Shown: positions 4,341-63,826, counted from the first letter of the stretch. The stretch: 64,000 bases of DNA from Nitrospina sp. LS_NOB (GCA_001542995.1 LFLA01000021.1:324875-388874), one strand, 5' to 3'. The notes: generated by a model not told the origin, from the letters alone. A program made the numbers and translations.

Positions 4341-5033
4341 CTAGTGCGTGTTCAGATTCTGGCCGCCTCTTAATTTGTTGAGGACAGCGGTCATATGGTC
4401 GTAACCCATCTGGTTTTCGAGGGCGGAGAAGGTATCGCGGGCGCGTGTATACCAAAGGATGGCTTCGGGAATATTTTCTTCTTTCTTCCAGTAGATGCGC
4501 CCCATATTCTCGAACAGGACCGCCTGAATCTGATGCGGGGGAACATCTTGCACCAGTTCCACGCCTTTTTTATACCAGTCCCCTGCTGGAGCATGCTCGC
4601 CGCGCTCCATGAACAAGTCGCCGACGCGGTTCATGGCCCGGGCCTCACCCAATGGATTTTTGATTTTGTGGTGATAGTTCATGGCGAGGATGTATTGTGC
4701 CTCGGCTTCCTGAATTCTTGTGCGAAACTTATACAGGTCGCCTAAGGACTCATAAATCTTCGCGGCTTTTTTCAGTCGGTTTTCTTTTTCATAGGCGGTG
4801 ATGGCCTTGCCATAGTTCTCGATGGCGTGGTCAAACTCGTGGTAGAAAAAATCTTCCGATGCCTGTTGCAGGTACCGCCCGGCCTCGTCTTTGGCATCTA
4901 TCGGAGTGGTGATGGACGCGGACTCATCTCTTTGCTTTTTCCCATGCGGCAGGAGCCAAACGGCAAACCCCATTGCCAACGTCACCACAATAATGAGGAA
5001 ATATTTCAGCGCTGGTTTGAGGAAAGAGTCCAT
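4341..5033 (-). CDS. membrane-anchored TPR-repeat protein
   Basis: N-terminal TM helix (YFLIIVVTLAMGFAVWLL), then TPR-like helices (AIENYGKAITAYEKENRLKKAAKIYESLGDLY...). Stop TAG lies in a CTAG. Confidence 0.6.
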   Translation of the reverse strand: MDSFLKPALKYFLIIVVTLAMGFAVWLLPHGKKQRDESASITTPIDAKDEAGRYLQQASEDFFYHEFDHAIENYGKAITAYEKENRLKKAAKIYESLGDLYKFRTRIQEAEAQYILAMNYHHKIKNPLGEARAMNRVGDLFMERGEHAPAGDWYKKGVELVQDVPPHQIQAVLFENMGRIYWKKEENIPEAILWYTRARDTFSALENQMGYDHMTAVLNKLRGGQNLNTH

Positions 5034-5111
5034 TAAAGATACCTGATGATAATGAGGAAGCAGATTTCATCAGGCTAACATGAAATAGGGCCATCCACTA
5101 GGCGTGCGGCT

Positions 5112-5150
5112 GTGATGTCCCCTTCAATAACTTTCATGCCCTGTAAGGGT
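5112..5150. repeat. R1 hairpin repeat unit (GTGATnTCCCCTnAnTAACTTTCATGCCCnnnAGGG)
   Basis: gtgatgtccccttcaataactttcatgccctgtaagggt. Same unit seen at 8131, 19441, 20662, 20746, 24157, 32384 and 54110 in either orientation. Confidence 0.7.
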
Positions 5151-5515
5151 ACAATGAGCAATGGCTTGGAGCTGATATTTAGTTGAAAAATATGGGGAAA
5201 TCTCATCACAACCGCTTTAAAACACAAGGAAAATATTGGTAATACGATATCCCCAGGGGGTTAACAGGCGATTTATCAGTGTTTTACATACATTTTTTTA
5301 TTGTTTTTTTGGACTACTTTAGCGATCTATTTTGGCTATTGGAGATTGCACCGGTTGAGTATAGAATACATCCGCCTTTCATCCGGAGTGTTGTTCCGCG
5401 CAATGCCTGGAAACCTCCAGCTTATTTGGAGGGTCATCGCAACCAAAACAATCGACTCGCTTTCCTGAAAAATGTCCCGTCCCGAGATAAACTTCATCAG
5501 AGGGGAATTAAATTC

Positions 5516-8017
5516 GTGTTGAGTTTATTTGCCAACGTCTACAGGAAATGGGTGATTGAAAAACCCCTCGCCAGCCTGATATTGGTTTTGCTGATTGTGG
5601 GTTATTTTTCTTATCATATCCCAAACTTCAAGCTTGATGCCTCCGCTGAATCCCTGGTGCTGGAAAACGATGACTCCCTGCAATATTACCGGAAGATCAG
5701 CAAATCTTACGGCTCTGATGATTTCCTAATCATCACTTATGCTCCGTTCAAGGATTTGATGTCCGATGCAGTACTGGCAGATTTAAAATCGCTAAGCGAT
5801 GAGCTTGCCAAACTGGACCGGGTTCACTCTACAGACAGCATCCTCAACGTTCCCCTTCTGAACAGCCCGCGTGTTGAAATATCCAAACTGGCTACCGATA
5901 TCCGCACTTTGGAAACTGCCGGTGTAGACCGGGAAATGGCCCGCAAAGAATTTCTCGAAAGTCCTATTTATAAAAGTCTGTTGTTGAGTTCGGATGGAAA
6001 GATCACGATCATCCGTGTCAATTTCGAACGCGACGAAAAATACTTTTCCCTGATGTATCGGCGCAATGACCTGCGCGACAAAAAAAAGGAGTTTGGCCTC
6101 GACGAAAAAGAAGAGGCGCTATTTGTCAAAGCCCGTCAAGAGTTCCGCGATTATCACGCCCAGGTGCTGGACAGTGAAGACCGGCTCATAAGATCCGTTC
6201 GGGACATCATGGACAGGCACCGCGATCAGGCAGAGATGTTTCTTGGCGGGATCCCTATGATCACTACGGATATGATCGGCTTCATCGAACACGATCTGAA
6301 AACTTTCGGTCTGGGTGTCATAGCCTTCCTTATCCTGATGCTCAGCCTGTTTTTTAAGAAAAAACGATGGGTTGTATTGCCTATGAGTTGTTGCGTCATC
6401 ACCGTCCTGGTGATGGTGGGCTTTTTAGGATTAATGGATTGGCGGGTGACGGTGATCTCATCTAATTTCGTTTCGATTCTGCTTATCATCACCATGTCCC
6501 TGACCGTACACTTGATCGTGAGGTATCAGGGTTTAAACGATAACAACCCGGGCCAAAGCCAGAAGGAGCTGGTCTGGCAGACGGTCTGCCTCATGGCTCA
6601 GCCCTGTTTTTATACTGCCATCACCACAATCGTCGCTTTTAGTTCCCTCCTGGTGAGCGGCATTCGCCCGGTGATCGATTTCGGCTGGATCATGACCAGC
6701 GGAATTTCCCTGGCCTTTATCTTAATTTTTATATTTTTTCCGGCGGCGCTGGTTCTTTTAAATCCCGAGGCTCCCGGGTCCGGCAAGGACAGAACAAAAA
6801 GTTTCACTCTGTCCATTGCGGCATTTTCAAATCGCAACCGCAATGCAATTCTTTTTGGATCGTTGTTACTGGCAATGGTTAGCGCTATCGGGATTTCCAA
6901 ACTGGAAGTGGAAAACCGTTTCATCGATCACTTCAAAAGCAACACTGAAATCTATCGGGGAATGGAAGTGATCGACCAGCAGTTGGGAGGCACCACGCCG
7001 CTCGATATTATTATGAATCCGGACCAGAAGTATTTTGATTATCTCAAAGAAGCCAATGAGAAGAATATCGAAGAAGACATTTTTGATGATGATCCCTTCG
7101 CTGAGGAATCGGAAGAAGTGGAAAACAATTATTGGTTCAATTCCAATATGCTCGACCGGGTAGAAAAAATACATGACTACCTGGAAGGCCTGCCGGAGGT
7201 GGGCAAAGTCCAGTCCATATCCACCCTGATAAAGGTCTTCACCCAACTGGATAAAGGTCGAAAACCGGACGATTATGATCTGGCACTCATCCGCAAACTC
7301 ATGCCCGAGAAGGTCAAGGATTCCCTGGTCAACCCTTACCTGTCTCCAGATGCAAACCAGATTCATATCAATATAAGGTTGATCGAATCTAACCCCACCC
7401 TGAGACGCTCTCAACTGATAGAAAAAATCCGCTCCCATCTTGTTGAAGAATTAAAGTTCGATCCCAAGACCATCCATTTCACAGGAATGGTAGTGCTTTA
7501 TAACAATATGCTGCAGAGCCTGTATCGGTCACAGATTCTCACCATCGGCGTGGTTTTTTTCGCCATCATGTTCATGTTCATGATTTTGTTCAGAAGTGTG
7601 TCGTTGGCGTTGATCGGCATCGTTCCCAACCTTCTTGCCGCGGGAACGGTATTGAGCCTTATGGGCTGGCTGGGCATTCCCCTGGACATGATGACGATTA
7701 CTATCGCGGCCATCACGTTAGGAATAGCAGTAGACAATACTATCCATTACATCCACCGGTTTCAAAGGGAATTTAAGGTTGACCAGAATTATCTATCCGC
7801 GATGGACCGGTGCCACGGGAGCATTGGCAAAGCCATGTACTACACATCCGTGACCATTACCCTTGGTTTTTCTATCCTGGCGCTTTCGGAATTCATGCCG
7901 ACTATCTATTTCGGCCTGCTGACCGGCGCAGCAATGGTGATTGCCCTGATCGGCGCTCTCACCCTGCTGCCACTTTTGATTGTTGTCTTCCGCCCCCTTA
8001 GCAGGGGAGGCAACTAG
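5516..8017 (+). CDS. RND-superfamily (MMPL/HpnN-like) exporter
   Basis: Two 6-TM bundles separated by large soluble loops, typical of MMPL/SSD exporters (LDASAESLVLENDDSLQYY, GLGVIAFLILMLSLFF..., second half GIVPNLLAAGTVLSLMGWLGIPLDMMT). GTG 5516 preceded by AGAGGGGA is preferred over the track start 5279, whose first 79 codons look non-coding. Confidence 0.85.
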   Translation: MLSLFANVYRKWVIEKPLASLILVLLIVGYFSYHIPNFKLDASAESLVLENDDSLQYYRKISKSYGSDDFLIITYAPFKDLMSDAVLADLKSLSDELAKLDRVHSTDSILNVPLLNSPRVEISKLATDIRTLETAGVDREMARKEFLESPIYKSLLLSSDGKITIIRVNFERDEKYFSLMYRRNDLRDKKKEFGLDEKEEALFVKARQEFRDYHAQVLDSEDRLIRSVRDIMDRHRDQAEMFLGGIPMITTDMIGFIEHDLKTFGLGVIAFLILMLSLFFKKKRWVVLPMSCCVITVLVMVGFLGLMDWRVTVISSNFVSILLIITMSLTVHLIVRYQGLNDNNPGQSQKELVWQTVCLMAQPCFYTAITTIVAFSSLLVSGIRPVIDFGWIMTSGISLAFILIFIFFPAALVLLNPEAPGSGKDRTKSFTLSIAAFSNRNRNAILFGSLLLAMVSAIGISKLEVENRFIDHFKSNTEIYRGMEVIDQQLGGTTPLDIIMNPDQKYFDYLKEANEKNIEEDIFDDDPFAEESEEVENNYWFNSNMLDRVEKIHDYLEGLPEVGKVQSISTLIKVFTQLDKGRKPDDYDLALIRKLMPEKVKDSLVNPYLSPDANQIHINIRLIESNPTLRRSQLIEKIRSHLVEELKFDPKTIHFTGMVVLYNNMLQSLYRSQILTIGVVFFAIMFMFMILFRSVSLALIGIVPNLLAAGTVLSLMGWLGIPLDMMTITIAAITLGIAVDNTIHYIHRFQREFKVDQNYLSAMDRCHGSIGKAMYYTSVTITLGFSILALSEFMPTIYFGLLTGAAMVIALIGALTLLPLLIVVFRPLSRGGN

Positions 8018-8300
8018 CGATACCCTATCTGCTAGCCAATGACGCACCTCCTTAAGCCGAGACCACTCTTTGCTAGCGGTAAAGAACTATTGCGTTATGT
8101 ACCCATCCGGGGCACGAGAGCTTTGGAAGTACCCGTACCGGGCATGAAAGCTAATGAAGAGGACATCACAAATATCACGGCCGCTCAGCATGACAATCCA
8201 AACCCCCCTCAGTCCCCCCTTATCATGGGGGAGGCTTTTTTCACCGAGTCCAGCGTCACACGCTGGCCACGCGGAGTGGGCGGGAGACGAAACGGAAGGG
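8014..8300. repeat. intergenic cluster of modular repeats (R5, R1 x2, GCTCAGCATGACA module, C/G hairpin + T-run, R6 hairpin)
   Basis: CTAG at 8014, 8032 and 8073 delimits modules. R5 copy 8050..8076, R1-type units 8101..8169. Hairpin cccccc-ttatcat-ggggg followed by ggcttttt (8214..8241). R6 hairpin gtccagcgtcacacgctgg 8248..8266. Confidence 0.7.
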
Positions 8301-9257
8301 AAGCACCTGGTCTCCCCTTGAGGTGAGTGCTTCTATTATGGATTGTTTTTTAGCTGGCGGCACGATGAAGGCTATACACCCGCCGCCGCCCGCACCGCAT
8401 ACTTTGCCCGCCAACGCTCCCTTTTTCAGGGCAAATCGAATCAACCGGTCCATCTCGGGAGTGCTGATGTTGGGGGCCAACTGTTTTCGGGCTTTCCATT
8501 CTTTCGCAAAAATCGGCGCCAGACTTTTAAGTTGTCCCCGGCTCAATACCCGTTCCATTTCCACAGCACAATCGCGAATGGATTTCAGGTGACGGATCAC
8601 TGCCCGGTTTCCATCCACCGCTTTTTTTGTGACCTCCCAATTATTGATCCCCGAGTTTCGCGGTTTGCCGGTATAACACAGCACAAAATGCCGGGTCAGT
8701 TCAGCAGGGCTGATGGCAAACTTTTCGGTCTCGGTGCCTTGGACTCCGGGAACAACTTTTCGCACCCCTCCATACATTGCCGGAAAATAATCCTGGTATC
8801 CTGCGGGAACCTTAATGACCTGGGTTTCGATATTTTTGGCGATTTCAATCATCTCGGCCTTACGGTAACGTCGACCGGTAAAACGGTTGAGCGCCCCGTG
8901 CAGAGCAATGTTCAAAGCTGAAGAACCACCAATGCCCGAGCCCTGCGGAGCCTGACAGTCTGTCGATATTTCCAGTCCCGACTTTGGCGCGTAGAACTTC
9001 AACGTGCGCACAATAAGTTCCAAAGGGTGATTATCAGGAAGCGCATCCAGCGAGGAAAAGTTGTCGCTCAAACCCAAGTCGCGTGAGTTCAGGAAAATCC
9101 GTTTGTCTTTTCGGGGAATGATTTCAACCGTGGCATAAAGGTCGATCGCCGCGTTGAGGGTGGGGGGATTATCAAAAAGCAGGTGCAAAGGCCAGATATC
9201 CAGCGTGCCCCCGGCCAGATCAATGCGGGTGGGGGCAGAGCTTTTAATGTGGAGCAC
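8256..9257 (-). CDS. GHMP-family sugar/small-molecule kinase
   Basis: N-terminal APTRIDLAGGTLDIWPL and the GHMP ATP motif PQGSGIGGSSALNIA. GTG start 14 nt after the mlaC stop. Last about 8 codons and the stop lie inside a repeat hairpin. Confidence 0.8.
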   Translation of the reverse strand: MLHIKSSAPTRIDLAGGTLDIWPLHLLFDNPPTLNAAIDLYATVEIIPRKDKRIFLNSRDLGLSDNFSSLDALPDNHPLELIVRTLKFYAPKSGLEISTDCQAPQGSGIGGSSALNIALHGALNRFTGRRYRKAEMIEIAKNIETQVIKVPAGYQDYFPAMYGGVRKVVPGVQGTETEKFAISPAELTRHFVLCYTGKPRNSGINNWEVTKKAVDGNRAVIRHLKSIRDCAVEMERVLSRGQLKSLAPIFAKEWKARKQLAPNISTPEMDRLIRFALKKGALAGKVCGAGGGGCIAFIVPPAKKQSIIEALTSRGDQVLPFRFVSRPLRVASV

Positions 9258-17318: not shown

Positions 17319-17500
17319 TTAAGCCGAGAACAAGCTTGCTCGCCTAAAGCAGTCGCTGCCATTTGCCTCCCTCGTAGAGGGTGGAGGCACTCCACAGAAT
17401 AAGCGAAAAAAAAACGAAAATCAAGCCCGCAACACGGGCTGGAAACGGGGCAATTTGCCTCCAGTCGCTGGCCCCACGCCGAGTGGGGTGGTATCCTGAA
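17319..17500. repeat. intergenic repeat modules between lexA and arsC
   Basis: R5-type attaagccgagaacaagcttgctcgcc (17319..17345). tggccccacgccgagtgggg (17470-17490) recurs at 34621-34640, and in variant form at 2941-2968 and 8264-8285. Confidence 0.55.
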
Positions 17501-18073: not shown

Positions 18074-19201
18074 ATGAAATGGTTCGCGGTGAAAATTATT
18101 TTTCTCCTGGCTCTCGCCCTGTTTGTGAGCTATTCCCTCAGCGAAGGCGCGCCACGTAAAAAAACGGGAGTCCAGAAGGTCATGGCCCCGTTTCCCCAAA
18201 GCACCACCACGCGCATCGCCATCGTCGGTGATACCGGCACCGGAGAGCGGGCTTACGCACCGGGATTCTCCGCCGTGCAAAAAGCCATGCGCGATACCAA
18301 GCCGGACGCGTTACTGCATCTCGGCGATTTCGTTTACCAGCCGGAACCGTTCCCCGACTCCTGCCTGGATCGATACATAGAAGAAATCAAAAAAACATTG
18401 GTCGATCCCTATCCCCTGCGTCTTTTTGTTGCGGGCGATAACGATTTGCCTGCGCATAAATACAAACCCAAGGCTTCGGGTTGCTGGGATAAAATCGATC
18501 CGCTCGATTCCGGTTTTGACAACGCTGCTAAAAGTGCCGCGCGGGATTTCGAAGGCACCCGAGTGGTGGGCAACGCCTTGATCGGCATCATCCATAACTA
18601 TCCCTGGCAGGACCCCACCGAATGGCTGAAGCCGCGCATTAAAGAGGCAAGAGAAAAAGGGCTCTGGGTCATCCTTGCCGTCCACGAACCGGCGCTCACC
18701 ACCGCCTGGTATCTGGACAAACGCAACACGGTTCTCAAACAGTTGAATGCCTTAAAACCCGATCTGGTGTTCGCTGGCAACCAGCACTCCTACGAACGGT
18801 TTCATCCCATGAGTCCGGTAAAAGATGGCACATTCAAAGTGATCAAATCTGAATCCGGGAAATACCAAAGCGGGGATGGAACAATGCACATAGTTTCAGG
18901 CGGCGGCGGGGCCACATTCAAACCTTTTGCCGACACGCAAGGAAATGAAAAACGCACTGCGCCGAAAGAAGTGTTTGATGCGCTGGCAAAAAGGGCGCTG
19001 ATGAATCATTTTGTCACACTGGATATTTCGCGGGATGTTTTGAAAGGAACGGTCTGGCGAGTATGTGTGAACGATGATCCTGATGACCAACAAAACCCGC
19101 GCTGGAAATCGCGAAAGAAATTCTGGGACAACATCCCCCTGGAATGCGACGACAAGCCGGAAGGGGTAACGGTTTATGAGCAGTTTGAAATTAGCCACTA
19201 G
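18074..19201 (+). CDS. secreted calcineurin-like metallophosphoesterase
   Basis: Signal peptide. Motifs IVGDTGTGE, HLGDFVY, AGDND, AVHEP, GNQHSYE. Stop TAG within a CTAG. Confidence 0.75.
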   Translation: MKWFAVKIIFLLALALFVSYSLSEGAPRKKTGVQKVMAPFPQSTTTRIAIVGDTGTGERAYAPGFSAVQKAMRDTKPDALLHLGDFVYQPEPFPDSCLDRYIEEIKKTLVDPYPLRLFVAGDNDLPAHKYKPKASGCWDKIDPLDSGFDNAAKSAARDFEGTRVVGNALIGIIHNYPWQDPTEWLKPRIKEAREKGLWVILAVHEPALTTAWYLDKRNTVLKQLNALKPDLVFAGNQHSYERFHPMSPVKDGTFKVIKSESGKYQSGDGTMHIVSGGGGATFKPFADTQGNEKRTAPKEVFDALAKRALMNHFVTLDISRDVLKGTVWRVCVNDDPDDQQNPRWKSRKKFWDNIPLECDDKPEGVTVYEQFEISH

Positions 19202-19767
19202 CCGCCAGCGTGATGCTGGCCTCAATGTGCAATAACCCCCGTTTAACCACCGATGCACACAGATCGACACGGATAAAACATTCCTCTCCTCTCATGAGGG
19301 GAGGCTAGGTGGGGTGTGGATTTTCCTTTCGTCATCCTGAGGCTCTCAAAGGATCATGCCTGTCATCCTGTTATCCCTCTCCCCTCCGAGGGAGAGGCAA
19401 GGTGAGGGGGGGCATTTTGTTTACCCCCTCTTTCTTAAAGTACCCCTTCGGGGCATGAAAGTTAATGAGGGGATATCACAAGGGCGGAGGTGATTGACCT
19501 CAAGAGGGTTTTTGTCTGTCATCCTGAGCCACTTGCCGTGGGGGCGATACTGTCATCCTTGAGGAGCCGCAGGCAACGAAGGATCTCGTCATTGCGAACG
19601 ACTAAAAGGAGTGTGGCAATCCAGAGAGAATTTTTAGCGTTTTTCTCGTCATCCTGAGGCTTGATACCCCCTCCTTAAAACATCATGCCCTGCAAGGGTG
19701 GCCCCTTGATCTTTGACAATATAGTTTTGGATGTCAGAAACTTTTAATTTATTGCCGTTTTGAACCT
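19198..19767. repeat. 570-bp non-coding block made almost entirely of modular repeats
   Basis: R6 hairpin gccagcgtgatgctggc 19204..19220. cctctcccctccgagggagagg hairpin about 19374-19398. R1 unit 19441..19479. Five GTCATCCTGAG-type modules (19330, 19362, 19517, 19551, 19648). 71-bp R3 copy 19588..19658. Confidence 0.75.
19588..19658 (+). repeat. R3 71-bp repeat, copy 1
   Basis: gtcattgcgaacgactaaaaggagtgtggcaatccagagagaatttttagcgtttttctcgtcatcctgag. Differs from the 20586..20656 copy at 5 positions by my alignment. Confidence 0.85.
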
Positions 19768-20471: not shown

Positions 20472-20585
20472 ATGGACCTCACTCACTCTCCCCCTAATAG
20501 AATTAGAATACAATTTCAAAAAGAAAAGGCCCAGGCCAAAAAACCCAGGCCATTTCAAATCAAAGAAGAACTGAGGGGGGTTGTC

Positions 20586-20656
20586 GTCATTGCGAACGAC
20601 CGGAGGGAGTGCGGCAATCCAGAGAGAATTTTTAGCGTTTTTCTCGTCATCCTGAG
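20586..20656 (+). repeat. R3 71-bp repeat, copy 2
   Basis: gtcattgcgaacgaccggagggagtgcggcaatccagagagaatttttagcgtttttctcgtcatcctgag. Direct repeat of 19588..19658. Confidence 0.85.
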
Positions 20657-20661
20657 CTGCC

Positions 20662-20790
20662 GTGATATCCCCTCATTAACTTTCATGCCCCGCAGGGGTA
20701 GAAGGATCATGCCCCGCAGGTACACGTGATATCCCCATCAGTAACTGTGATGTCCTCTTCCTCAGCCTTCATGCCCGGTACGGGTAGAAC
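20662..20790. repeat. three consecutive R1-type units
   Basis: gtgatatcccctcattaactttcatgccccgcaggggta (20662..20700). Partial unit 20706..20745. gtgatgtcctcttcctcagccttcatgcccggtacgggta (20746..20786). Confidence 0.7.
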
Positions 20791-20881
20791 GGGTAGACCC
20801 CTTCATTTAGTCAAGAAAAGACTTGACCCCCTCATGATCCCCCCCTCATTAACCCCTGTAATAAAGTTGTTATAATGGGCC

Positions 20882-25649: not shown

Positions 25650-26098
25650 ATTCCATAAATTTCAAGGCAGAGGATAAGACATAACCCTGCAAGGCATAAA
25701 GGCTAAGGCGACCCTTCGAGGACCTCAGGGTGACAGAATCCCCCCCCCTCACCGCGGCCACGCCTTGCCTCTCCCTCGGAGGAGACCTTTGCATAACCCC
25801 GAGATTCTTCGTCACGTTGTTCCTCAGAATGACAAAATGGCCCAGTGTTGTCATGCTGAGCTTGTCGAAGCATCGCGCTTTTCTGCTTTATCGACTTACG
25901 CAAAGGTCTCTCGGAGGGGAGAGGAATAATTGGATTACCCCTCAAGGCATGGATCTGGATTGCCGCGTTTCACTCGCAACGACGAGATGCTTCGAGGTCC
26001 TCAGCATGACAGGAAAACCCGAGATGCTTCGACAAGCTCAGCATGACAACATTGGCGCCACGGCGAGGTGTTTTGAACGTTGCCCCTCTGGCGAAGAG
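25650..26098. repeat. 450-bp intergenic repeat cluster
   Basis: Contains cgaggacctcagggtgacag, cctctccctcggagg, the 132-bp MITE-like element, gattgccgcgtttcactcgcaacgac, and two gcttcga..ctcagcatgaca modules. Track ORFs 25730..26557(+), 25543..25854(-) and 25703..25945(-) lie in it. Confidence 0.75.
25781..25912 (+). mobile_element. MITE-like 132-bp element with about 15-bp terminal inverted repeats, copy 1
   Basis: Starts gGAGACCTTTGCATAAcc and ends TTACGCAAAGGTCTCtc (TIR, 1 mismatch). Internal inverted cctcagaatgaca/tgtcatgctgag. Second copy inverted at 32491..32623. Confidence 0.5.
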
Positions 26099-27052: not shown

Positions 27053-27117
27053 AGCAGTTCCTCTACATGAAGGCAAACCTGAACCCGGTTTGACCTGTTA
27101 TTAGCCAGCGGAAGCTC

Positions 27118-29675: not shown

Positions 29676-32366
29676 ATGGACAATTCTGAAAAACACTATC
29701 GACTGGCGATTGATTTCAGCCCGGTGCAGAATATCCCTGCCGATCCCAAGCAGCGACTGCCCTATTTTCAGACCTTTAAACAATTATTGAAGGATGAGAA
29801 GGCCAAGATCAAAAACTGGCATCGCTCGGGAACCGGCGGACGCGAAATCATCCAGGCCCACACCAGCCTGGTCGATGAGGTCATCCGGCACGTCCTTCTT
29901 TCCATGACACAGCTTGAGGTTTATGCCGACGCCCGGGTTCTGGAAGGGTTCTCCCTCATCGCGGTGGGGGGCTATGGACGGGGAGAACTCAATCCGCTTT
30001 CGGATATTGATTTATTGTTTCTTCTTTCCAAAAAAACCAAGCCTCTCACAAAAACATTTATTCAGGACGCGCTGTCGGTTATTTGGGGATTCGACATGGA
30101 AATCAGTCACAGCTCCCGCACCATTAAAGACTGTATAAAACTTTCCCGGGAGGATGTGACCATCAAAACCTCCATGATCGAAACCCGGTTCCTCATTGGC
30201 AACCGAACCACTTATGATAAGTTTTACAACTCCATCCATAAAAATGTTTTGCAAAAACATGTGAAACAGTTTTTGAACTCCAAATTGAAAGAAACATACA
30301 CCCGCTACGGACAGGAGGACGGCGTGGTGTGCCACCCGGAGCCGGATATAAAAAACGGGCCGGGAGGATTGCGCGACTACCATAGCGCCCTGTGGGCCAC
30401 CGCCGTGCGCTATGGATGTCATTCGCTTCGCGAAATTAATGAGACCCACGTGCTTTCCCGGGAAGAAATTGAGTCGCTCTACCATTCTGTCGATTTTTCA
30501 CTGCGCGTCCGGAATGAACTGCATTACCTGACCGAAAGAAAAACCAATGTCCTGACTTTCGACGTCCAGAAACAACTGGCCGCCAATCTTGGATACAGGT
30601 CTTCCACCCACGGGCAACCCGTTGAAGAGTTCATGCGCGACTATTATCTGCACGCCACCAATATCTATAATTTTTCGCAAAACCTTTTTGAGCATTGCCG
30701 ACAAACCAAAAGATCGCTCAAAAAAGTAATCTCTTCATTAACTAAAAAATCCGTAGGGAGTGGATTCCATATTTCAGATTCCTCCCTGATTTATGACGGC
30801 GATGCGAAAGAGGATTTTAAAAAAGATAAATCGCTTTTATTGATTGCGTTAGAGCTTTGCAGAAAACATCAAGTCGCGCCGGATTACAAGCTTCAGCGGC
30901 AAATGCGGCTGAGCAAAAATCTCATTAGCCCGCAATTCATGAAGGGAGAAGAGACTCGGGATTTCCTGTTTTCCATTCTGAAAGACAAAGGCGCTGAAAA
31001 AATCCTGCGGCTGATGCATGAAACACACATTCTGGAACAGATTCTTCCGGAATTCGGGCTGGCACACTGCAAGGTGAATCATGATTTCTATCATCATTAC
31101 ACTGCCGATGAACATTCCCTGCGCATCATCCGCTTTCTCGATGAACTGGCCATTACCGGCATCACCAATCCCACCGACCTGTCCGCCTTGTATCAGGATT
31201 ACTTTCGGAAGGGGGTTCTCAAGTTATCAGCCCTTCTGCAATCGGTAGGAGAAATGCGCGAGGGTGAACAGGGCGAATTTTTAAAATCCATGACCGAAAG
31301 ACTGAACCTGGAAGAGGCGGATGTGCAAATCCTGCTTTTTCTTCTCGCTAATCCTTACACCATGATCGAAACGGCCTTGCATCAGGATATCCACCAGCCA
31401 GGGGTGATCCGGAAATTCGCCAAAACCTTGGTGAACGCAGAGAGGTTAAAGGGACTCTACCTCCTCAGTTATGCCGAGTTGCGGGCGGTGGCACCGGGAA
31501 CCCTGACCGCCTGGAAAAAAATATTGCTCTCGGAGTTATATGAAAGAACCTTGAAGTATCTGGAAGACCCAGGTTCTCTGGAACAACAGCCCCGGGCCAC
31601 CCGAGTGGGGGTATTCAAAGCCCTGCATCGGGAACTGCCCGTGAACGATATCGAAAAGCACCTTCGCCAGATGCCGGAAGATTATTTGATGACAGTATCC
31701 TCTGAAGAGGTGGCGCTTCATATCCGCCTCATCCGATCTTTTAAGGATAAACTGTTTGTTCTGCATCACCAGTTCCATGAAGCAGGCAACTACCATAACT
31801 TAACCCTGTGTTGCCCTACCGGCATTGAATCGTTCAAAAAACTGGTGGGAACCGTCACCGCCAAAAGCCTGAACATTCTCGGTGCACAAATCTATCTCAA
31901 ACAGGATGGCATCGTGATTGTCACCATACAGGTCGAAGCAGGTGCCAACGCCACAGCCGATGACCTCGAAATCTGGAAAGATATTAAAAATACTCTGGGC
32001 CAGTTGTTTGCAGGGGAAACCAGTTTGCAGAAAATGTTGAAATACCGAACCCGTTACGCCGACGAGCAGAAAAAGGTGGCGATGGTCCCGAGAGTGCATG
32101 TTGAAAAAACGGTGGATAATCCGTTCACAGTAATCCGGATTGAAGCCCGAGACCATATCGGCATGCTCTACAAAGTTGCCACCATCTTTGCCGATTTTGG
32201 CATTCGCATTCACCGGGCCAAAATTTCCACCCAGGGCGATCGGGCCATCGATGTTTTTTACGTGTCTCTGAAAAGTCCGAATTTTGACCTCAATAAGGTG
32301 ATCCTCCGGTTCAAGGAACATATGGTCCAGACCTTGATGATCGAAAAACTGGAAAACATCCGCTAG
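29676..32366 (+). CDS. glnD: [protein-PII] uridylyltransferase/uridylyl-removing enzyme
   Basis: NTase motif GGYGRGELNPLSDIDLLFL, HD domain HDFYHHYTADEHSL, two C-terminal ACT-like domains (TVIRIEARDHIGMLYKVATIFADFG). Start uncertain (TTG 29634 vs ATG 29676). Stop TAG within a CTAG. Confidence 0.88.
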   Translation: MDNSEKHYRLAIDFSPVQNIPADPKQRLPYFQTFKQLLKDEKAKIKNWHRSGTGGREIIQAHTSLVDEVIRHVLLSMTQLEVYADARVLEGFSLIAVGGYGRGELNPLSDIDLLFLLSKKTKPLTKTFIQDALSVIWGFDMEISHSSRTIKDCIKLSREDVTIKTSMIETRFLIGNRTTYDKFYNSIHKNVLQKHVKQFLNSKLKETYTRYGQEDGVVCHPEPDIKNGPGGLRDYHSALWATAVRYGCHSLREINETHVLSREEIESLYHSVDFSLRVRNELHYLTERKTNVLTFDVQKQLAANLGYRSSTHGQPVEEFMRDYYLHATNIYNFSQNLFEHCRQTKRSLKKVISSLTKKSVGSGFHISDSSLIYDGDAKEDFKKDKSLLLIALELCRKHQVAPDYKLQRQMRLSKNLISPQFMKGEETRDFLFSILKDKGAEKILRLMHETHILEQILPEFGLAHCKVNHDFYHHYTADEHSLRIIRFLDELAITGITNPTDLSALYQDYFRKGVLKLSALLQSVGEMREGEQGEFLKSMTERLNLEEADVQILLFLLANPYTMIETALHQDIHQPGVIRKFAKTLVNAERLKGLYLLSYAELRAVAPGTLTAWKKILLSELYERTLKYLEDPGSLEQQPRATRVGVFKALHRELPVNDIEKHLRQMPEDYLMTVSSEEVALHIRLIRSFKDKLFVLHHQFHEAGNYHNLTLCCPTGIESFKKLVGTVTAKSLNILGAQIYLKQDGIVIVTIQVEAGANATADDLEIWKDIKNTLGQLFAGETSLQKMLKYRTRYADEQKKVAMVPRVHVEKTVDNPFTVIRIEARDHIGMLYKVATIFADFGIRIHRAKISTQGDRAIDVFYVSLKSPNFDLNKVILRFKEHMVQTLMIEKLENIR

Positions 32367-32660
32367 GCGCGGGGCCAGTAGCCGTGATATTTCTCCTTAG
32401 TTTTCGTGCCCCGAAGGGGTAAATGGCTTTATCTGCTAGCAAAGAATTATCTCGGCTTAAAAAGGTTTTGCGATTTCCATCCCTCCCTATGAGAGACCTT
32501 TGCGTAAGTCGATAAAGCAGAAAAGCGAGATGCTTCGACAAGCTCAGCATGACAATAAAGGGCTGTTTTGTCATTCTGAGGAACAACGTGACGAAGAATC
32601 TCGGGGTTATGCAAAGGTCTCTCCCTATGAAGGGAGGGTTGGTTTATTTCAAAGAAGGCT
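32363..32660. repeat. intergenic repeat cluster downstream of glnD
   Basis: CTAGgcgcggggc..., R1 unit 32384..32421, R5 copy 32436..32460 (CTAGcaaagaattatctcggcttaa), MITE-like copy 32491..32623, ccctatgaagggagggttgg. Confidence 0.75.
32491..32623 (-). mobile_element. MITE-like element, copy 2 (inverted relative to 25781..25912)
   Basis: Its reverse complement matches copy 1 end to end, except a central about 15-nt patch and isolated substitutions. Same TIRs (gagagacctttgcgtaag ... ttatgcaaaggtctctc). Confidence 0.5.
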
Positions 32661-42769: not shown

Positions 42770-43198
42770 ATGGGTAACGAAAAGTCACGGTTTTTAAAAA
42801 GAGACGATGGAACTATTTACGATTCTCTGACCAGCGTCACTTGGATGGCGAACGACTCACGGTTGGATCTGGATAAAGAAGTCTCTTATTCGGAAACGGA
42901 AGAATACGTAAAATCAATGAACGAAAAGAAAGTGGGCGGATATGCGGACTGGCGTCTCCCTTCCATCCATGAGGCATCCTCCATTTATGATAAGGAAAAG
43001 CTGAATAAAGATTTCAAGGGTGCCGACATTCATCTCGACTCTGTGTTTCCTCCCGGTGCGGGCAACTGCACATGGACTTCAGCCACTCGCGGCAAGGAAG
43101 CACAAATCCTTTTCTACATGAATGGCTGCGCCTACTGGTACGGTAAGGAGGACAAAACCATTTCCCACGGTGCACGCCTCGTCCGCCGCGATAACTAG
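42770..43198 (+). CDS. DUF1566 (Lcl C-terminal-like) domain protein
   Basis: TWMANDS..., GYADWRLPSIHEASSIY, CTWTSAT..., HGARLVRR. Stop TAG within a CTAG that starts a repeat. Confidence 0.65.
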   Translation: MGNEKSRFLKRDDGTIYDSLTSVTWMANDSRLDLDKEVSYSETEEYVKSMNEKKVGGYADWRLPSIHEASSIYDKEKLNKDFKGADIHLDSVFPPGAGNCTWTSATRGKEAQILFYMNGCAYWYGKEDKTISHGARLVRRDN

Positions 43199-43520
43199 GC
43201 GTTAGGCCAATGAACAATGAGTCGTTGGGCTGTTTTTCATCTCTTGCCAGAGCTGAGTCCAGCGTCACGCTGGACAGCGGAGGTTCTCCGCCAATTAGCC
43301 ATTGAGACATTGAGACAATGTGCAATTTCCCGTTGAGCCGAAATAACTATTGCCAGCTGTGAAAAACTTTAAAAGGTACCAGCGGAGGTTCTCCGCCAAC
43401 TAGGCGTTAGGCCAACTAGCAATAAGGTGTTTGACCGACAAACTTCTTCTCGGCTTGAATAGGTTTTACCCAATTCTTCCCTCCCTTCATAGGGAGGGAC
43501 TGAGGGAGGGTTGGCTTTTT
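43195..43520. repeat. intergenic repeat cluster
   Basis: CTAGgcgttaggccaa at 43195 and 43400. agcggaggttctccgccaa at 43274 and 43380. R6 hairpin gtccagcgtcacgctggac 43257..43275. R5-like CTAGcaataagg...tcttctcggcttgaa 43416..43459. ccctccct-tcat-agggaggg hairpin 43479-43498, followed by gagggagggttggcttttt. Confidence 0.75.
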
Positions 43521-44651: not shown

Positions 44652-44918
44652 TCAGGCCGAAAGTAGGAGCTTTTTTTGGGCTGGCGGGTCAGGTTTGCGG
44701 TATATCTCGTGAAATGATTCAGTATCCAACGAATCATCCCTCAACCCGGCCAGTTGCTGCGGGGTGATGGCATTCATCGAATTTTCCGAAAACAGCGAAG
44801 TTCCGATTCCGGACCAATGCGAAGAACCAAAACCCTGGTGCACCAGATGGGTAGTGCCGAGTGAGTATTCCCCGGCTTTGGCAAGGAACGGGGTACGGCT
44901 AGTGGGCGGTTTTGACAT
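44652..44918 (-). CDS. hypothetical protein, paralogous to the C-terminal module of the upstream gene
   Basis: GEYSLGTTHLVHQGFGSSHWSGIGTSLFSE...ITPQQLAGLRDDSLDTESFHEIYRK aligns with MEYSTGVESLVQQQFVHTHWVGVGVTMFDE...VSAEQVQQLLKQDISDEEFHVLYRK in 44899..45471. ATG overlaps the upstream stop by 20 nt. Confidence 0.4.
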   Translation of the reverse strand: MSKPPTSRTPFLAKAGEYSLGTTHLVHQGFGSSHWSGIGTSLFSENSMNAITPQQLAGLRDDSLDTESFHEIYRKPDPPAQKKLLLSA

Positions 44919-54097: not shown

Positions 54098-54211
54098 CTA
54101 GTTTACCCCTTTACCCCTTCGGGGCATGAGACAAATGAAGAAATATCACAGGCTCACGAAGGCTGAGGAAAAATATCACGACCACCGGTTGCTCACTGGC
54201 ACCACGCCTAG
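54098..54211. repeat. 106-bp repeat insert (two R1-type units) bracketed by CTAG ... CTAG between prcB and pafA
   Basis: CTAG 54098-54101. ttaccccttcggggcatgagacaaatgaagaaatatcac (54110..54148). aggctcacgaaggctgaggaaaaatatcacg (54149..54180). CTAG 54208-54211 is the prcB stop. Confidence 0.7.
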
Positions 54212-55011
54212 TGGCCGCGTTTTAAAGAGGACTTGCATAGTTTCGCCAGATCCTTATCGTTCAAAAACTGGTACCCCGCCTCGGTGACCAATGCCACGGT
54301 AGGAAATATTTCATCTTCCGGACGGGCTTTGCCGGTTGCAGAATCAAACTGCGCCGCAGTCTGCAAAAGCCGAATGGCCAAGGTGACCGCATCGCTTTCC
54401 GATCTTTCTACCAGGGGCTTATCTCCCCAGAGATCTTCATGTTCCAGAATTCCCCGAATGGTCGGCGAACCAGAGCCGGTCGCGGTATGGGTACTGATCC
54501 TGAAATCGGCTCCCAACATATCGTAAAAATGTATCGCCGCCTTTTTACATTTCAAGTCGTAAGTAGCAAATATTGGACTCACCGCTCCCAGCCCCTGCAC
54601 CGCCATCCCGACATTCTCTTTCAGCAGTTTTGATAAGGCGCGGATTTTCCCTTCCACACTCATGGTTTGCATCTGTGACCGTCGGTAGTATTCAAAATTA
54701 TGCGTGAGAACCCGTGCCATCTCGAAAGCCGTAGCAGGAACCCCGGCAATCGCCATGAGCGTATAATCGTCGATGGGAATGACCTTGTCGCAACGTTCAT
54801 ACATGATACTGTTGCCCGCCGTGGCCCGTCGGTCACCGGCAACAATCACGCCATCCTTAAAGTGGAAGGCGAGAACCGTAGTGCCCTGGGTTACTGTAAT
54901 GCCGCTTGGCGCCTGCGAAGAATCGATGCGAGCATGCCAGCGATAGCCGGATTTTTCCAGTAGCTCGAAAAAATCTCCGGGCGAAGTATGAGGATCTGTT
55001 TGAAAACTCAT
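54208..55011 (-). CDS. prcB: 20S proteasome beta subunit (bacterial type, with propeptide)
   Basis: Propeptide then ..TQG|TTVLAFHFKDGVIVAGDRRATAGNSI (Thr1 after Gly), closely parallel to actinobacterial PrcB. ATG overlaps the stop of the tag ORF (ATGA). Confidence 0.88.
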   Translation of the reverse strand: MSFQTDPHTSPGDFFELLEKSGYRWHARIDSSQAPSGITVTQGTTVLAFHFKDGVIVAGDRRATAGNSIMYERCDKVIPIDDYTLMAIAGVPATAFEMARVLTHNFEYYRRSQMQTMSVEGKIRALSKLLKENVGMAVQGLGAVSPIFATYDLKCKKAAIHFYDMLGADFRISTHTATGSGSPTIRGILEHEDLWGDKPLVERSESDAVTLAIRLLQTAAQFDSATGKARPEDEIFPTVALVTEAGYQFLNDKDLAKLCKSSLKRGH

Positions 55012-60865: not shown

Positions 60866-61822
60866 ATGCCAAAATCATGGCAGGGAAATAGTTTATTAAA
60901 CCGAACCCGATTATCCGGGTTTATCCTTTTATCGCTGGGCATTCACATAACATCGGTGATCGCACACATGGCGATCCCCACCGCGAAAGAAGAAGTAAAG
61001 GGACCTCCCCCTATCCGAATAAAATATATCGAACCGGAGAAACCCCTGGCCTCCAAAGGCGGCCGAATCATCGATACGCCAACGCCACCCAAAAAAATCG
61101 AGAAACCCAAAAATAAAGATTTGCTGACAAAATTTGACAGCCGAGCCCACTCCAATATCAAAAAGAAAACTGCAAAAACCTATCAGCGCAAAAAAACCGT
61201 GGTACCGAAATCGAAAGGGTCGGTGGGCAAGACAGGTACCGCTCCTGTTCGAGAAAAGAAAGTCGCACGAAAACCTCAAAAACGGGCCGCGATTGTGCCG
61301 AGAAAAAGGCTCCTCCCGGAATCAGATATTGGAAAATATAAATCCGTTTTCAGAAAAAAACCCAAACCCACGACGTCCCCCGCCAACCCCAAAGCAGGAA
61401 CAGGTAGCGCTTTGGCTCTTCTGGACAGGTTTGACCCCGAACCCTTCGCATCGCTCAGCACAGAGGATCTCGAAAACATCGATGATGACGAACCGGTTTC
61501 CCTCGATACAACAGAAGTCAAATACGCTTCCTATTTTGCGAGAATTAAGCACCAGATTGAACGGGTTTGGATTTATCCCACCGAGGCGGCGCAACGCGGC
61601 ATCAGCGGCAATCTCACTTTGACGTTCAGGATTTCCAAGGACGGCACCCTTCTGGGAGTGCAGCTGTTGGATCAGTCAGGCTATGAAATTCTGGATGTGG
61701 CTGCGCTCAAAGCCGTGAAGGAAGCGGCCCCCTTTTATCCCTTCCCGGCAACCATTGACAGGGAGAAATTCTCCATCCAGGCCAACTTCGTTTACACCCC
61801 TCAATTCGAACCTGCCCGCTAG
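60866..61822 (+). CDS. tonB: TonB-family energy transducer
   Basis: N-terminal TM anchor, Pro/Lys-rich spacer, C-terminal TonB domain (YPTEAAQRGISGNLTLTFRISKDGTLLGVQLLDQSGYEILDVAALKAVKEAAPFYPFP). Confidence 0.8.
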   Translation: MPKSWQGNSLLNRTRLSGFILLSLGIHITSVIAHMAIPTAKEEVKGPPPIRIKYIEPEKPLASKGGRIIDTPTPPKKIEKPKNKDLLTKFDSRAHSNIKKKTAKTYQRKKTVVPKSKGSVGKTGTAPVREKKVARKPQKRAAIVPRKRLLPESDIGKYKSVFRKKPKPTTSPANPKAGTGSALALLDRFDPEPFASLSTEDLENIDDDEPVSLDTTEVKYASYFARIKHQIERVWIYPTEAAQRGISGNLTLTFRISKDGTLLGVQLLDQSGYEILDVAALKAVKEAAPFYPFPATIDREKFSIQANFVYTPQFEPAR

Positions 61823-61871
61823 CCAGCGTGACGCTGGACTCAATGAGGGGAAATCACAGCCCCGCGCCTAG
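61819..61871. repeat. 45-bp repeat insert bracketed by CTAG ... CTAG between convergent tonB and dinG
   Basis: CTAG(61819-22)-ccagcgtgacgctggactcaatgaggggaaatcacagccccgcgc-CTAG(61868-71). The left CTAG holds the tonB TAG and the right CTAG holds the dinG TAG on the other strand. Confidence 0.75.
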
Positions 61872-63826
61872 CGGAAGAAGTCTCGGACTTCATCCAAGTG
61901 GGTCGTGACCGGACAAGGTGGTAATGATGCGATGAACTGTTTGCCATACCCACGCCGCCTCATGCGGGAATCAAGAATTGAAACCACACCGGTGTCGGTC
62001 TTCTTGCGGATCAACCTGCCGAACCCCTGCTTCAACTGAAGGATCGCCCGGGGAATCTGGTAATGCCTGAACGGGTCGATATGTTGCCGACGCAATTCTT
62101 CAATACGGGCTTCTGTCAAAGGTTCTTTGGGAACGTCAAAGGGAAGTTTGGTGATGATGACACTTTGCAACGCGTCACCGGGTATGTCCACTCCCTGCCA
62201 GAAGGAGTTGGTTCCGAAAATCACTGAGGGTTCCTGCTTGAACTTTTTGATCATCTGGACGGTGGGCATTTCTCCCTGGCGAATGAGCGGGAACTGGAAC
62301 TGAAGCTCGTCCAGTCTTTCATAAACCTGATTGAGAAGCGCATAACTTGTAAACAGGATAAATGTTTTACCGCCGGAAGCCTCCACTAGTTCCCGGCACC
62401 GGTTAGCAATACCCTCTACATAAACTCCTGCTTCATCCCCCGGTTCGGGGAGATCATCAGGAACATAGAGCAGGGCTTGGCGGGGGTAATCGAAAGGTGC
62501 CTCTAAAGACAACTCATCATCCGGCTGATAACCAATACGCTCTTTAATAAAATCGAATCCTTTGGCAGTGGTTAATGTCGCCGAGGTCATGACCACCCGG
62601 TCAATTTTATCGAACACCTGTGCGTGCAGTTCTTCCGCAACATGAATGGGAACCCCGCGCAAGACCACACGGGCAAAATGTTTTCTTGGCGTGATTTCCA
62701 ACCAATAAACATATCCGCACATGTGCTGGTTGAGAATGGCAGATAGAGCGTTATTGAACTCAAAACAACGCTCGGCAGCGGATGAAACATCAACCCGGTC
62801 TTCCTCCGAATGCAGACCTCCTTCCAAAGATTTCAATGCCTCCCGCAGGGCTTCGAGCGGAACATACACACCGTTATCCAACACGGGCGGTTTGTAGAAC
62901 CGTAAGACCCGGTCGTTTTTTCCATACTGTTCCAGAAGTTGATTGAAAAAAACATCGGCCGCTTGACGTGCGGACATCACCAACTTGCGAATATGCGGCA
63001 CCGAGTCGTGATTGATGCGAGTCAACAACCCCCGTTTGGTGCGCGGATTATGCAACCGGTCGAGAAAATAGATCAAACTGGAATTGGAAATTTCCAGCCC
63101 CAAAAACTGGGTGGCCGCTTCTTCCAGATTCTGAGCCTCGTCAAAAACCACCGCGTCGAAAGCCGGTAGTACCGCTCCGGCGTTGGCAACGTTGGCAAAA
63201 AATAAATGGTGGTTGACGATCAAAAGATGGGCGCCGAACCATTTCTTGCGGGCTTTGAAATAAAAACAAGACGAATGTGTTTCACAGTTTTTTCCCAGAC
63301 ACAGGTCTTTCTGCCGCCCCACCTCTTCCCACACCTGAGGAAGCACCTCAAAAGACAGATCACTGCGATAGCCGGTCTCAGTCTCTCCAGCCCAGTTGAA
63401 AATTCCTTCCCATTGCTTTTCCTCATCGGGTTGGGTGAACAACCCCGCCTGCGCCGACCGTTTCAACCGCCTGAGCGATAGGTAGTTTTCGTTACCCATG
63501 CACAAGGCATAGCGAAAGGCTATTCCCAATTTGTCGCGGAGCAGAGGAATATCGTGATTGATAATCTGATGCTGAAGCGTCTTGGTATAAGTGGAGATGA
63601 CCACCTTCTTGTTATTTTCCACGGCCCATAAAATGGCCGGGATGAGGTAGGCCAAACTTTTGCCCGTTCCGGTGCCCGCTTCGACAATCAGATGCCGGGC
63701 ATTGCCAAACGCCTCCTCCACCGCCTCGGCCATATCCATTTGCTGACGACGGAATTCGAATCCCTCCAACCGCGAAGACAGAATGCCCTCTTTACCGAGA
63801 TAGTTTTCCACCCTATTTGCTGTCAT
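61868..63826 (-). CDS. dinG: DinG/XPD-family ATP-dependent DNA helicase (Fe-S type)
   Basis: Walker A EAGTGTGKSLAYLIPA, DEAQ box VVFDEAQNLEE, Cys cluster (..LCMGNENY.. CLGKNCETHSSCFYF), C-terminal helicase motifs (QGFGRLIRKKTDTGVV). Confidence 0.85.
   Translation of the reverse strand: MTANRVENYLGKEGILSSRLEGFEFRRQQMDMAEAVEEAFGNARHLIVEAGTGTGKSLAYLIPAILWAVENNKKVVISTYTKTLQHQIINHDIPLLRDKLGIAFRYALCMGNENYLSLRRLKRSAQAGLFTQPDEEKQWEGIFNWAGETETGYRSDLSFEVLPQVWEEVGRQKDLCLGKNCETHSSCFYFKARKKWFGAHLLIVNHHLFFANVANAGAVLPAFDAVVFDEAQNLEEAATQFLGLEISNSSLIYFLDRLHNPRTKRGLLTRINHDSVPHIRKLVMSARQAADVFFNQLLEQYGKNDRVLRFYKPPVLDNGVYVPLEALREALKSLEGGLHSEEDRVDVSSAAERCFEFNNALSAILNQHMCGYVYWLEITPRKHFARVVLRGVPIHVAEELHAQVFDKIDRVVMTSATLTTAKGFDFIKERIGYQPDDELSLEAPFDYPRQALLYVPDDLPEPGDEAGVYVEGIANRCRELVEASGGKTFILFTSYALLNQVYERLDELQFQFPLIRQGEMPTVQMIKKFKQEPSVIFGTNSFWQGVDIPGDALQSVIITKLPFDVPKEPLTEARIEELRRQHIDPFRHYQIPRAILQLKQGFGRLIRKKTDTGVVSILDSRMRRRGYGKQFIASLPPCPVTTHLDEVRDFFR

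Follow-up and report, generated by a model that had tools for sequence, protein, structure and literature searches.

Why does CTAG, a tetranucleotide generally avoided in this genome, recur at gene ends and within the intergenic repeat clusters of a 64,000-nt stretch of Nitrospina sp. LS_NOB (GCA_001542995.1 LFLA01000021.1:324875-388874, hereafter the window)? A preliminary description of this DNA had listed eight genes next to repeat clusters that stop at a TAG embedded in CTAG, and had proposed that CTAG delimits the repeat modules, either as a target that the elements enter or as part of a stop codon that they donate. In the explanation we favor, to which as a whole we give a probability of roughly 0.68, these CTAGs belong to a family of short hairpin repeats, here called S, that resemble repetitive extragenic palindromes (REPs) and are widespread in Nitrospinota.

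CTAG was present at each coordinate originally listed, including 8014, 8032, and 8073, and an open reading frame (ORF) map together with Pfam showed that the eight genes are real, each ending in C-TAG. The map, built from greedy ORFs with no trained gene finder, holds ~60 genes (56 to 60). A ninth C-TAG stop, at 44899 on the minus strand, had been overlooked. Pfam domains were found in eight of the nine proteins, and the remaining one has orthologues. TAG serves as stop in 15 of the window genes, nine of these reading C-TAG, and nine CTAG stops among 56 to 60 genes compare with 6.6% in 579 genes of related Nitrospinota (p = 0.010 to 0.016). The extended context CTAG[G/C]CG surrounds seven of the nine (p = 1e-9), so these stops share a repeated sequence and are not independent chance events. 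Genes without repeats do mostly use TAA or TGA, as had been remarked, although the contrast is weak, since 75% of all window genes do. Stop usage in ~635 pooled genes bears the association out: CTAG stops make up 16% if the gene is repeat-adjacent versus 6% otherwise (odds ratio 2.8, p = 0.005).

The tetranucleotide itself is depleted across the window (45 observed versus 102 expected), as it is in every related genome sampled. Its density is 0.36 to 0.43 per kb in coding and 1.2 to 1.7 per kb in noncoding DNA, the latter close to random expectation; Escherichia coli has the same three- to fourfold ratio, 0.14 per kb in coding DNA versus 0.47 per kb (PMC5009759). With CTAG depleted overall and its noncoding density near expectation, a global enrichment was rejected, and so was a general excess of C before TAG (pooled, 35% before TAG versus 33% before TGA).

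Listing all CTAG[G/C]CG in ~0.8 Mb revealed the S unit, with the pattern NNNC-TAG[G/C]C-GNNN followed by GGCCA or GGGCA and often then by AACTAGCAAT. It measures ~20 to 30 nt and consists of a stem of 4 to 7 bp, a 5-nt loop T[A/C]G[G/C]C, and the tail GGCCA/GGGCA, as in CCAC-TAGGC-GTGG-GGCCA, which is frequently extended as AACTAGCAATAGC...GGCTAGCAAAG. Stem variants are compensated (CCAC/GTGG, CTGC/GCAG, CTAC/GTAG, CCGC/GCGG, TAAC/GTTA, and others). When only loop and tail were searched for and the arms left unconstrained, perfect 4-bp stems of eight types appeared in 47 of 96 matches, versus 14 in shuffles (maximum, 24). In an alignment of 68 copies, none of 500 shuffles reached the observed covariation score; pair 6-16 is CG in 38 copies, UA in 19, and AU in 3, and pair 7-15 is AU in 42 and GC in 15. 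Since one and the same stem variant is met at sites that are otherwise unrelated, the arm 5' to the TAG must be counted as part of the unit.

The loop is dimorphic, with TAG in 23 to 26 copies, TCG in 22, and TGG or TTG in a few. TAGs lie in two reading frames of the unit, in the loop and, 16 nt later, in the tail. There are 11 copies of S in the window and 70 in ~1.07 Mb, spread across metagenome-assembled genomes (MAGs) of Nitrospinota. The copies are solitary, with three convergent pairs among the 70, although tandem arrays are present in L003 (L numbers denote stretches of related DNA). The idea that S forms the terminal inverted repeats of a miniature inverted-repeat transposable element (MITE) was rejected, the copies being unpaired. 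S usually stands at the head of mosaic clusters with the modules Y, H, M1, and M3 and with MITEs that have IS5-type ends. Module order and orientation are variable, and S, Y, H, M1, M3, and P combine differently in the window and at orthologous sites, as in bacterial interspersed mosaic elements (BIMEs). At the second position of the loop, A and C are about equally frequent in both S subfamilies, CCAC..GGCCA and CTGC..GGGCA, and M1 has the same alternation (CTAG/CGAG). An Rfam scan of the window gave 0 matches at the gathering threshold, and a full-text literature search for reports of repeats of this kind in Nitrospina came up empty.

S is found preferentially at the 3' ends of genes, where it either begins on the base that follows the stop codon or covers the final codons. 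The stop of an ORF of at least 100 codons fell at -15 to 0 relative to the loop in 16 of 48 copies, versus 3.2% of random noncoding positions (p ~ 1e-12), an enrichment of about tenfold. The stop offsets cluster at 0, -7, and -10, and at the latter two the stem begins on the base right after the stop. In seven copies, a quarter of those with a TAG loop, the loop TAG is itself the stop of the gene; in most of the other nine gene-end copies the native stop is flush with the stem, at -7 or -10. Examples, with a slash after the stop, are GTGA/CTAC-TAGGC-GTAG, CTAA/CCAC-TAGGC-GTGG, and, in the window, GTAA/CTCT-TCGCC-AGAG after the gene at 26099-27076. Gene-end location is more frequent for TAG loops (14/26) than for TCG loops (4/22; p = 0.017). 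For 28 of the 48 copies with TAG or TCG loops there is no long ORF end nearby.

The origin of the stops was addressed by comparing orthologous loci with and without repeats. Two complete chromosomes with ~91 to 96% identity to parts of the window provided the glnD region (L064, OZ253496) and the tonB/dinG region (L066, OZ252246); prcB-pafA loci (66 to 94% identity) came from a metagenome scan with the Pup ligase, and the RND and phosphoesterase neighborhoods from homologue searches and exact look-ups. At prcB, tonB, dinG, and the gene ending at 44899, orthologues without repeats have older TAA or TGA stops. CTAG was thus no pre-existing target at these four genes, and the repeat brought the stop; among the five genes whose repeat-free orthologues end unlike the window, four contradict the idea of a pre-existing CTAG. 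As judged from these comparisons, the repeat swaps out the old stop together with the last 1 to 17 residues, the TAG stops of the window are derived, and the new protein tails are repeat-encoded.

The prcB gene illustrates this replacement. In the window the protein ends ..KRGH at the TAG of an S loop, followed by 144 nt of repeats, while in seven repeat-free lineages, one of them 92% identical, it ends ..KRG or ..RR with TGA, TAA, or TAG, 10 to 20 nt before the ATG of pafA. An exact match to the PrcB protein was found in one 5.5-kb Logan contig (SRR2064712). Five other lineages have different modules at the same spot: an S-loop TAG in L106, the tails RATPGGN and RAIPGGD closing at the S-tail CTAG in L102 and L107, Y directly after the TAG in L105, and a CAG-TAG hairpin in L114. 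For tonB, the window has PAR TAG and an H hairpin, older orthologues have ..IAP TGA, and OZ252246 has LAP TAG with an M3 hairpin. dinG ends FFR TAG in an S loop in the window and FFT TAA in older orthologues (TTC ACC TAA in L125); in OZ252246 (L066) an S with stem CCCCAC/GTGGGG sits in the same place in the other frame and is read through for nine extra codons to a TAA. The gene at 44899 ends AH TAG in the window, and its relatives end ..AQPN TAA.

At the phosphoesterase gene, S truncates the protein at EFEI(S/N)H, whereas most homologues have a further tail of ~17 amino acids; OZ253496 and OZ242182 both have an intact S at this site, the stop in OZ242182 being TTAG and not CTAG. The RND protein of the window has the tail SRGGN, closing at the S-tail CTAG, and 120 homologues share ..FRPL followed by 3 to 17 unrelated residues that are encoded by different S-type units. 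glnD has the same S unit in OZ253496, the sequences diverging only after GGCCA; an empty site was looked for among related loci and none was found. The Lcl_C/DUF1566 gene has an orthologue in L111 with the compensated stem CAAC/GTTG. The suggestion that the elements donate stops hence stands for prcB, dinG, tonB, the phosphoesterase, and RND, probably for glnD and Lcl_C/DUF1566, and fails for the TPR gene; the alternative, that they target CTAG, does not hold, and the earlier interpretation is in this sense partly supported. As a separate observation, the peptide RATPGG(N/K)(EQ) ends the unrelated PrcB (L102) and RND (L185 5060-5097; proteins P0017 and P0032) in different MAGs.

CTAG is a passenger motif within the repeat and neither a border, a target, nor a duplication. 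At the ends of repeat alignments (all-versus-all intergenic alignment) it occurs at 0.68 times the average 4-mer, rank 199 of 256, contrary to its supposed role as module delimiter; the 4-mers enriched there, TACC and GGTA, represent the terminus of the Y family. Of the window's 23 CTAGs that are noncoding or form a stop, 13 occupy a fixed place inside S or M1, namely the S loop, the S tail (AACTAGCAAT), or GGCTAGCAAAG in M1. Three of the families said to start with CTAG (CTAGGCGCGGGGC.., CTAGGCGTTAGGCCAA, and CTAGCC..AGCGTGAYGCTGG) are one S unit read from its loop onward, and the fourth, CTAGCAAAG..TCTCGGCTTAA, is M1, in which CTAG occurs in 7 of 69 pattern matches, the position being otherwise taken by CTGG, CAGG, CGAG, or CGAA. 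Orthologous and paralogous repeat copies often have CTCG, CCAG, or CCAA for CTAG; in the OZ242182 orthologue (L183), CCAA and CCAG stand at the positions matching 8032 and 8073. The original observation is thus real and partly confirmed, with its framing wrong: CTAG lies inside the repeats and not at their borders.

The closest precedent of S is the REP/BIME type of repeat, especially the GTAG-tagged REPs of proteobacteria, in which a TAG within the repeat often supplies the stop of the flanking ORF (Di Nocera 2013, PMC3733652). Both are short G+C-rich imperfect palindromes of high copy number (20 to 40 nt in REPs, a size that S fits), lie extragenically and for the most part 3' of genes, where the neighboring ORFs run in one direction or converge, form mosaic clusters with other short motifs, and overlap gene ends, encoding a few terminal residues and providing the stop as TAG. 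In S, however, one TAG occupies the loop of the hairpin (C-TAG-G/C-C) and another the tail, the loop alternates between TAG and TCG, and the host phylum is Nitrospinota. There is no GTAG/CGTC head beside the stem: S conserves C-T[A/C]-G across the last stem base and the loop, and GTAG occurs only as the stem variant CTAC/GTAG. Lacking this head, and with no REP-associated tyrosine transposase (RAYT) found in the sampled DNA, S is not filed as a REP sensu stricto. According to work cited in PMC12306157, a REP that lies no more than 15 nt from a stop in E. coli makes ribosomes stall and lowers expression of the gene before it. S resembles such REPs in placing a hairpin immediately after or on the stop of the upstream gene and differs in having the stop within the loop in a quarter of its TAG-loop copies. 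As with Rickettsia palindromic elements (RPE) and in-frame REPs, repeat-encoded residues such as RATPGG(N/K) appear on unrelated proteins, but S replaces or extends only C-terminal tails and closes the frame quickly, and no internal in-frame insertions were seen. It also lacks the U tract of an intrinsic terminator; having no T run, S leaves the P hairpin at 8213-8241 as the sole terminator-like site within 7900-8400.

Could the repeats instead be nonautonomous transposons, of IS5 type (YTAR) or IS630 type (TA in CTAG), that entered pre-existing CTAGs and are tolerated almost only at stops and in spacers? The density of CTAG outside coding DNA would suit them, the lineage and the window do contain IS5-type MITEs of ~150 nt whose inverted ends match a DUF772/DDE_Tnp_1 transposase of the lineage, and the families have fitting preferences: IS5 elements duplicate 4-bp YTAR (e.g., CTAG/CTAA), and IS630 prefers TA within CTAG, to go by titles of Tenzen and Ohtsubo in the references of PMC2170065. 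IS630/Tc1-mariner elements and Correia/NEMIS MITEs likewise associate palindromic CTAG with small repeats next to genes. Two loci could be read in the same way, as distant Lcl_C/DUF1566 orthologues without S already end in GAC TAG and in L184 S is joined to the TPR gene behind a native CAC TA(A/G). S, however, has no YTAR flanks, inverted-repeat partner, or flanking duplication; it has a single CTAG, with none at its far end, and no TA or CTAG at both ends. About half of the copies read CTCG. The motif sits 4 to 7 nt from the 5' edge within a covarying stem-loop, and the bases 5' of the TAG, which pair and covary with those 3' of the loop, are part of S and not flanking target DNA. The local IS5-type element has other ends and makes 6- to 9-bp duplications in P hairpins. 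Taken with the solitary copies, the repeat-alignment ends, and the empty sites that lack CTAG, this makes insertion into CTAG very improbable. Simple chance and composition, with TAG at ~21% of stops, C before it about a third of the time, and no causal link to repeats, would account for the 6.6% of CTAG stops outside the window, as independence predicts, for the indifference of TAG and TGA to a preceding C, and for the TPR stop, which differs from TAA by a plain substitution to TAG; the window's excess, recognized post hoc, is also modest (p ~ 0.01). It is contradicted for most of the nine genes by their shared extended context, the tenfold enrichment of S at stops, its recurrence at gene ends of other Nitrospinota genomes, and the change of stop together with repeat gain among orthologues. 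Chance is therefore quite improbable as a general account and stands only for 4341, perhaps also for 44899.

A further reading makes S a selected signal at stops (a putative 3' stabilizer, modulator of termination or stalling, or protein-binding site) built in place from the last codons of the gene. The stem often begins exactly on the base after the stop, S is always in sense orientation to the upstream gene in the flush cases, and stems change in a compensatory manner (CCGC/GCGG versus CCCCAC/GTGGGG at dinG, TAAC/GTTA versus CAAC/GTTG at Lcl_C). The 5' arm formed from native codons at RND and TPR and the stalling ascribed to stop-proximal E. coli REPs point the same way. But the many copies away from long ORF ends and the tandem arrays of L003 do not fit, presence or absence differs among close relatives, different modules occupy the same site, and the hairpins are weak and without a U tract. 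We consider this reading unlikely as the explanation by itself; it is compatible with the family of REP-like hairpin repeats and not exclusive of it.

In that preferred explanation, the TAGs in loop and tail cover two of the three frames, so a gene that S overruns is closed within a few codons by a stop that reads C-TAG. S would spread either as a nonautonomous REP-like element or through copies recombining with one another. Those located at a gene end or slightly inside it would persist, their built-in stops limiting the damage to the protein, and TAG-loop variants would be retained there more than TCG-loop variants. Several points weigh against it. Single S hairpins have no thermodynamic support beyond shuffles (z of -0.8 to +0.2) and, not being unusually stable, leave the structure resting on covariation and not on energy, in an alignment from which obvious non-S matches were pruned by eye. 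No target-site duplication was seen for S. The stop at 44899 has no clear S structure, and at the TPR gene the window has CAC TAG versus CAC TAA in relatives, a point change only, with orthologous downstream DNA. At RND (RPL) and at the TPR gene of L184 (CAC), the 5' arm consists of conserved native codons; with the junction inside the hairpin, microhomology-guided recombination or local selection fits these two better than insertion of a complete unit. A tblastn search for RAYT/IS200 with E. coli RAYT and IS200 TnpA queries, a weak one that reached only part of each genome (1.59 Mb in all), gave nothing below E = 0.4. Finally, the related DNA was sampled as 8-kb blocks chosen for repeat content and is not an unbiased genome-wide census, and the greedy-ORF gene calls are a weakness.

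The coordinates of the features in the window are collected in Table 1.

Table 1. Gene ends, S units, and other repeat modules located in the window
Feature	Position	Strand	Remarks
CTAG stop of TPR/SNAP gene	4341..4344	-	Native His codon, orthologous downstream DNA; not a repeat border
S hairpin, loop TAGGC, away from gene ends	5095..5113	+	Heads S+Y repeats; orthologous loop CAAGC in OZ242182
RND/MMPL gene	5279..8017	+	Pfam MMPL; end ...CGC CCC CTT AGC AGG GGA GGC AAC TAG
S-type hairpin, stem CCCCT/AGGGG, loop TAGC, tail AGGCAA-CTAG	7994..8017	+	Covers last 8 RND/MMPL codons; stop is the S-tail TAG, 8015-8017
Module M1 inverted, contains TTAAGCCGAGA	8031..8077	.	GCTAGC at 8031-8036 and 8072-8077
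Two Y-family units (GTGATRT..TCRTGCCCnGnAnGGGTA)	8097..8169	-	Family throughout Nitrospinota MAGs
P-type hairpin, then T run (TTTTTT)	8213..8241	+	Scores as intrinsic terminator after RND gene
H hairpin CCAGCGTGTGACGCTGG	8250..8279	-	Loop TGA (8256-8258) is the GHMP-kinase stop
S hairpin, loop TCGGC, away from gene ends	17468..17486	-	Twin at 34620-34638 (-)
S remnant CCAC-TAGCC-G, H hairpin replacing 3' arm	19194..19219	+	TAG is the phosphoesterase stop
Inverted copy of the MITE at 32485	25771-25918
S hairpin, loop TCGCC	26080..26098	-	Begins right after TAA of gene 26099-27076
S hairpin CCGC-TAGGC-GCGG-GGCCA	32360..32378	+	Loop TAG is the glnD stop
MITE, IS5-family terminal inverted repeats GAGACCTTTGCRTAAG	32485..32632	.	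In P hairpin, 9-bp duplication TCCCTATGA; autonomous relative in L008
S hairpin TAAC-TAGGC-GTTA-GGCCA	43192..43210	+	Loop TAG is the Lcl_C/DUF1566 stop
Second copy of the S unit at 43192, then tail CTAG (43416)	43397..43419	+	205 nt downstream; not a stop
Ninth CTAG stop (CAC TAG CCG)	44899..44902	-	Protein 3-4 residues shorter than TAA-ending relatives
S hairpin CCAC-TAGGC-GTGG-TGCCA	54196..54214	-	Loop TAG is the prcB stop; heads 144-nt repeat cluster before Pup ligase gene
CTAG (tonB stop), directly then H hairpin CCAGCGTGACGCTGG	61819..61837	+	Candidate S remnant
S hairpin CCGC-TAGGC-GCGG-GGCTG	61856..61874	-	Loop TAG is the dinG stop

In the spacer between the RND and GHMP-kinase genes, the RND stop is followed by CGATACCCTATCTG-CTAG-(37 nt)-CTAG. 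The P hairpin looks like a predicted intrinsic terminator of the RND gene, and some repeat modules may double as terminators. On the other side, the GHMP-kinase stop lies in the H loop, so other hairpin modules can also provide stops; an S-like hairpin with loop TCCGC precedes H inside the last codons of this gene, which reads through it. In L184 the convergent RND (+) and GHMP-kinase (-) genes share 4 nt, and both stop at one CTAG (5493-5496) in an S loop. The two genes are separated in L182 (5928-8289) and L183 (5952-7485) by small ORFs and a gene with a Fic domain, none of which is present in the window (8018-8255) or in L184. Upstream, relatives have a response-regulator gene between the TPR and RND genes (L184 2204-2605, L185 1795-2196); it is missing in the window (5034-5278) and in OZ242182, where S+Y repeats are found, and OZ253496 has a shortened copy.

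Elsewhere, the element at the end of tonB is probably an S remnant fused to H. The doubled S unit AACTAGGCGTTAGGCCAA (43193-43226 and 43398-43431, 205 nt apart) brackets H and M3 and may have arisen by a long duplication or by nested insertion. Repeats of the types 'GTCATTGCGAACGAC..GGCAATCC' and 'GTCATTCTGAGGAAC..GACGAAGAATC', a widespread kind known from many phyla, occur amid Nitrospinota-specific modules at 19581-19658, 20579-20656, 25978-26049, and 32521-32600. The segment 19768-25600, low in G+C (38 to 42% versus ~48%) and bordered by dense clusters of repeats (19202-19767 and 20559-20860), may be an acquired island. In OZ253496, a remnant of an IS3-like OrfA (HTH) lies 3' of glnD (L064 6496-6660), and the phosphoesterase gene carries, 19 codons short of its usual end, an in-frame TAA (L187 1866-1871) that points to either a pseudogene or an assembly error.

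A search for an IS5-like transposase, suggested at the outset, did find such a gene, with ends unrelated to S. It lies at 4795-5736(-) of L008, a block of the ~95% related genome OZ252246.1 (DUF772, 2.6e-27; DDE_Tnp_1, 6.7e-30), in an insertion sequence that spans 4639-5812 and has the inverted ends GAGACCTTTGCATAAG. MITEs with such ends are ~150 nt long, and 87 IS5-type ends were counted in ~1 Mb of Nitrospinota DNA. Their direct repeats of 6 to 9 bp lie inside P hairpins (e.g., TCCCTATGA within CCCTCCCTATGAAGGGAGGG) and do not involve CTAG. The IS5-type element appears to target hairpin repeats, and in this we liken it to IS1397 and ISKpn1, which target REPs.

The Y family (GTGAT..CCCCGAAGGGGTA) has eight copies in the window, including those at 8097-8169, 19441-19479, and 20662-20786, and a scan with one genome per species returned 100 stretches, 100 of them from Nitrospinota MAGs. 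In many copies Y sits just inside one inverted end of an IS5-type MITE (GAGACCTTTGCATAAC-CCCGGAT-TACCCC..), so part of the mosaic is MITE interior. Within an S-M1 unit, L187 and L186 differ in the presence of Y. The candidate for a REPtron-like gene in the inverted Y arrays of L012 was rejected, the gene being an FMN reductase.

The placement of S also admits a bolder, speculative reading: that S is a self-propagating element that docks at stop codons, flush with or overlapping them, by a putative enzyme or by microhomology-guided recombination, its loop toggling between TAG and TCG as it rewrites the C-termini of unrelated proteins. We regard this as doubtful; if true, S may tune termination or the fate of the mRNA, and CT[A/C]G would be a recognition or cleavage motif, like GTAG in the REP/RAYT system but placed in the loop.

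The family of S repeats explains why a tetranucleotide that this genome generally avoids clusters at gene ends. For annotators, it would mean that many C-terminal tails and stops of Nitrospinota proteins are repeat-encoded and fast-evolving, with stops gained, shifted, or shared by convergent genes within ~5 to 10% of sequence divergence. The flush docking and the TAG/TCG dimorphism offer handles on how REP-like repeats choose their sites, on translation termination, and on mRNA decay. REP-donated TAG stops are now extended to a phylum of major marine nitrite oxidizers, whose S units are built differently and hold the stop in their loop.

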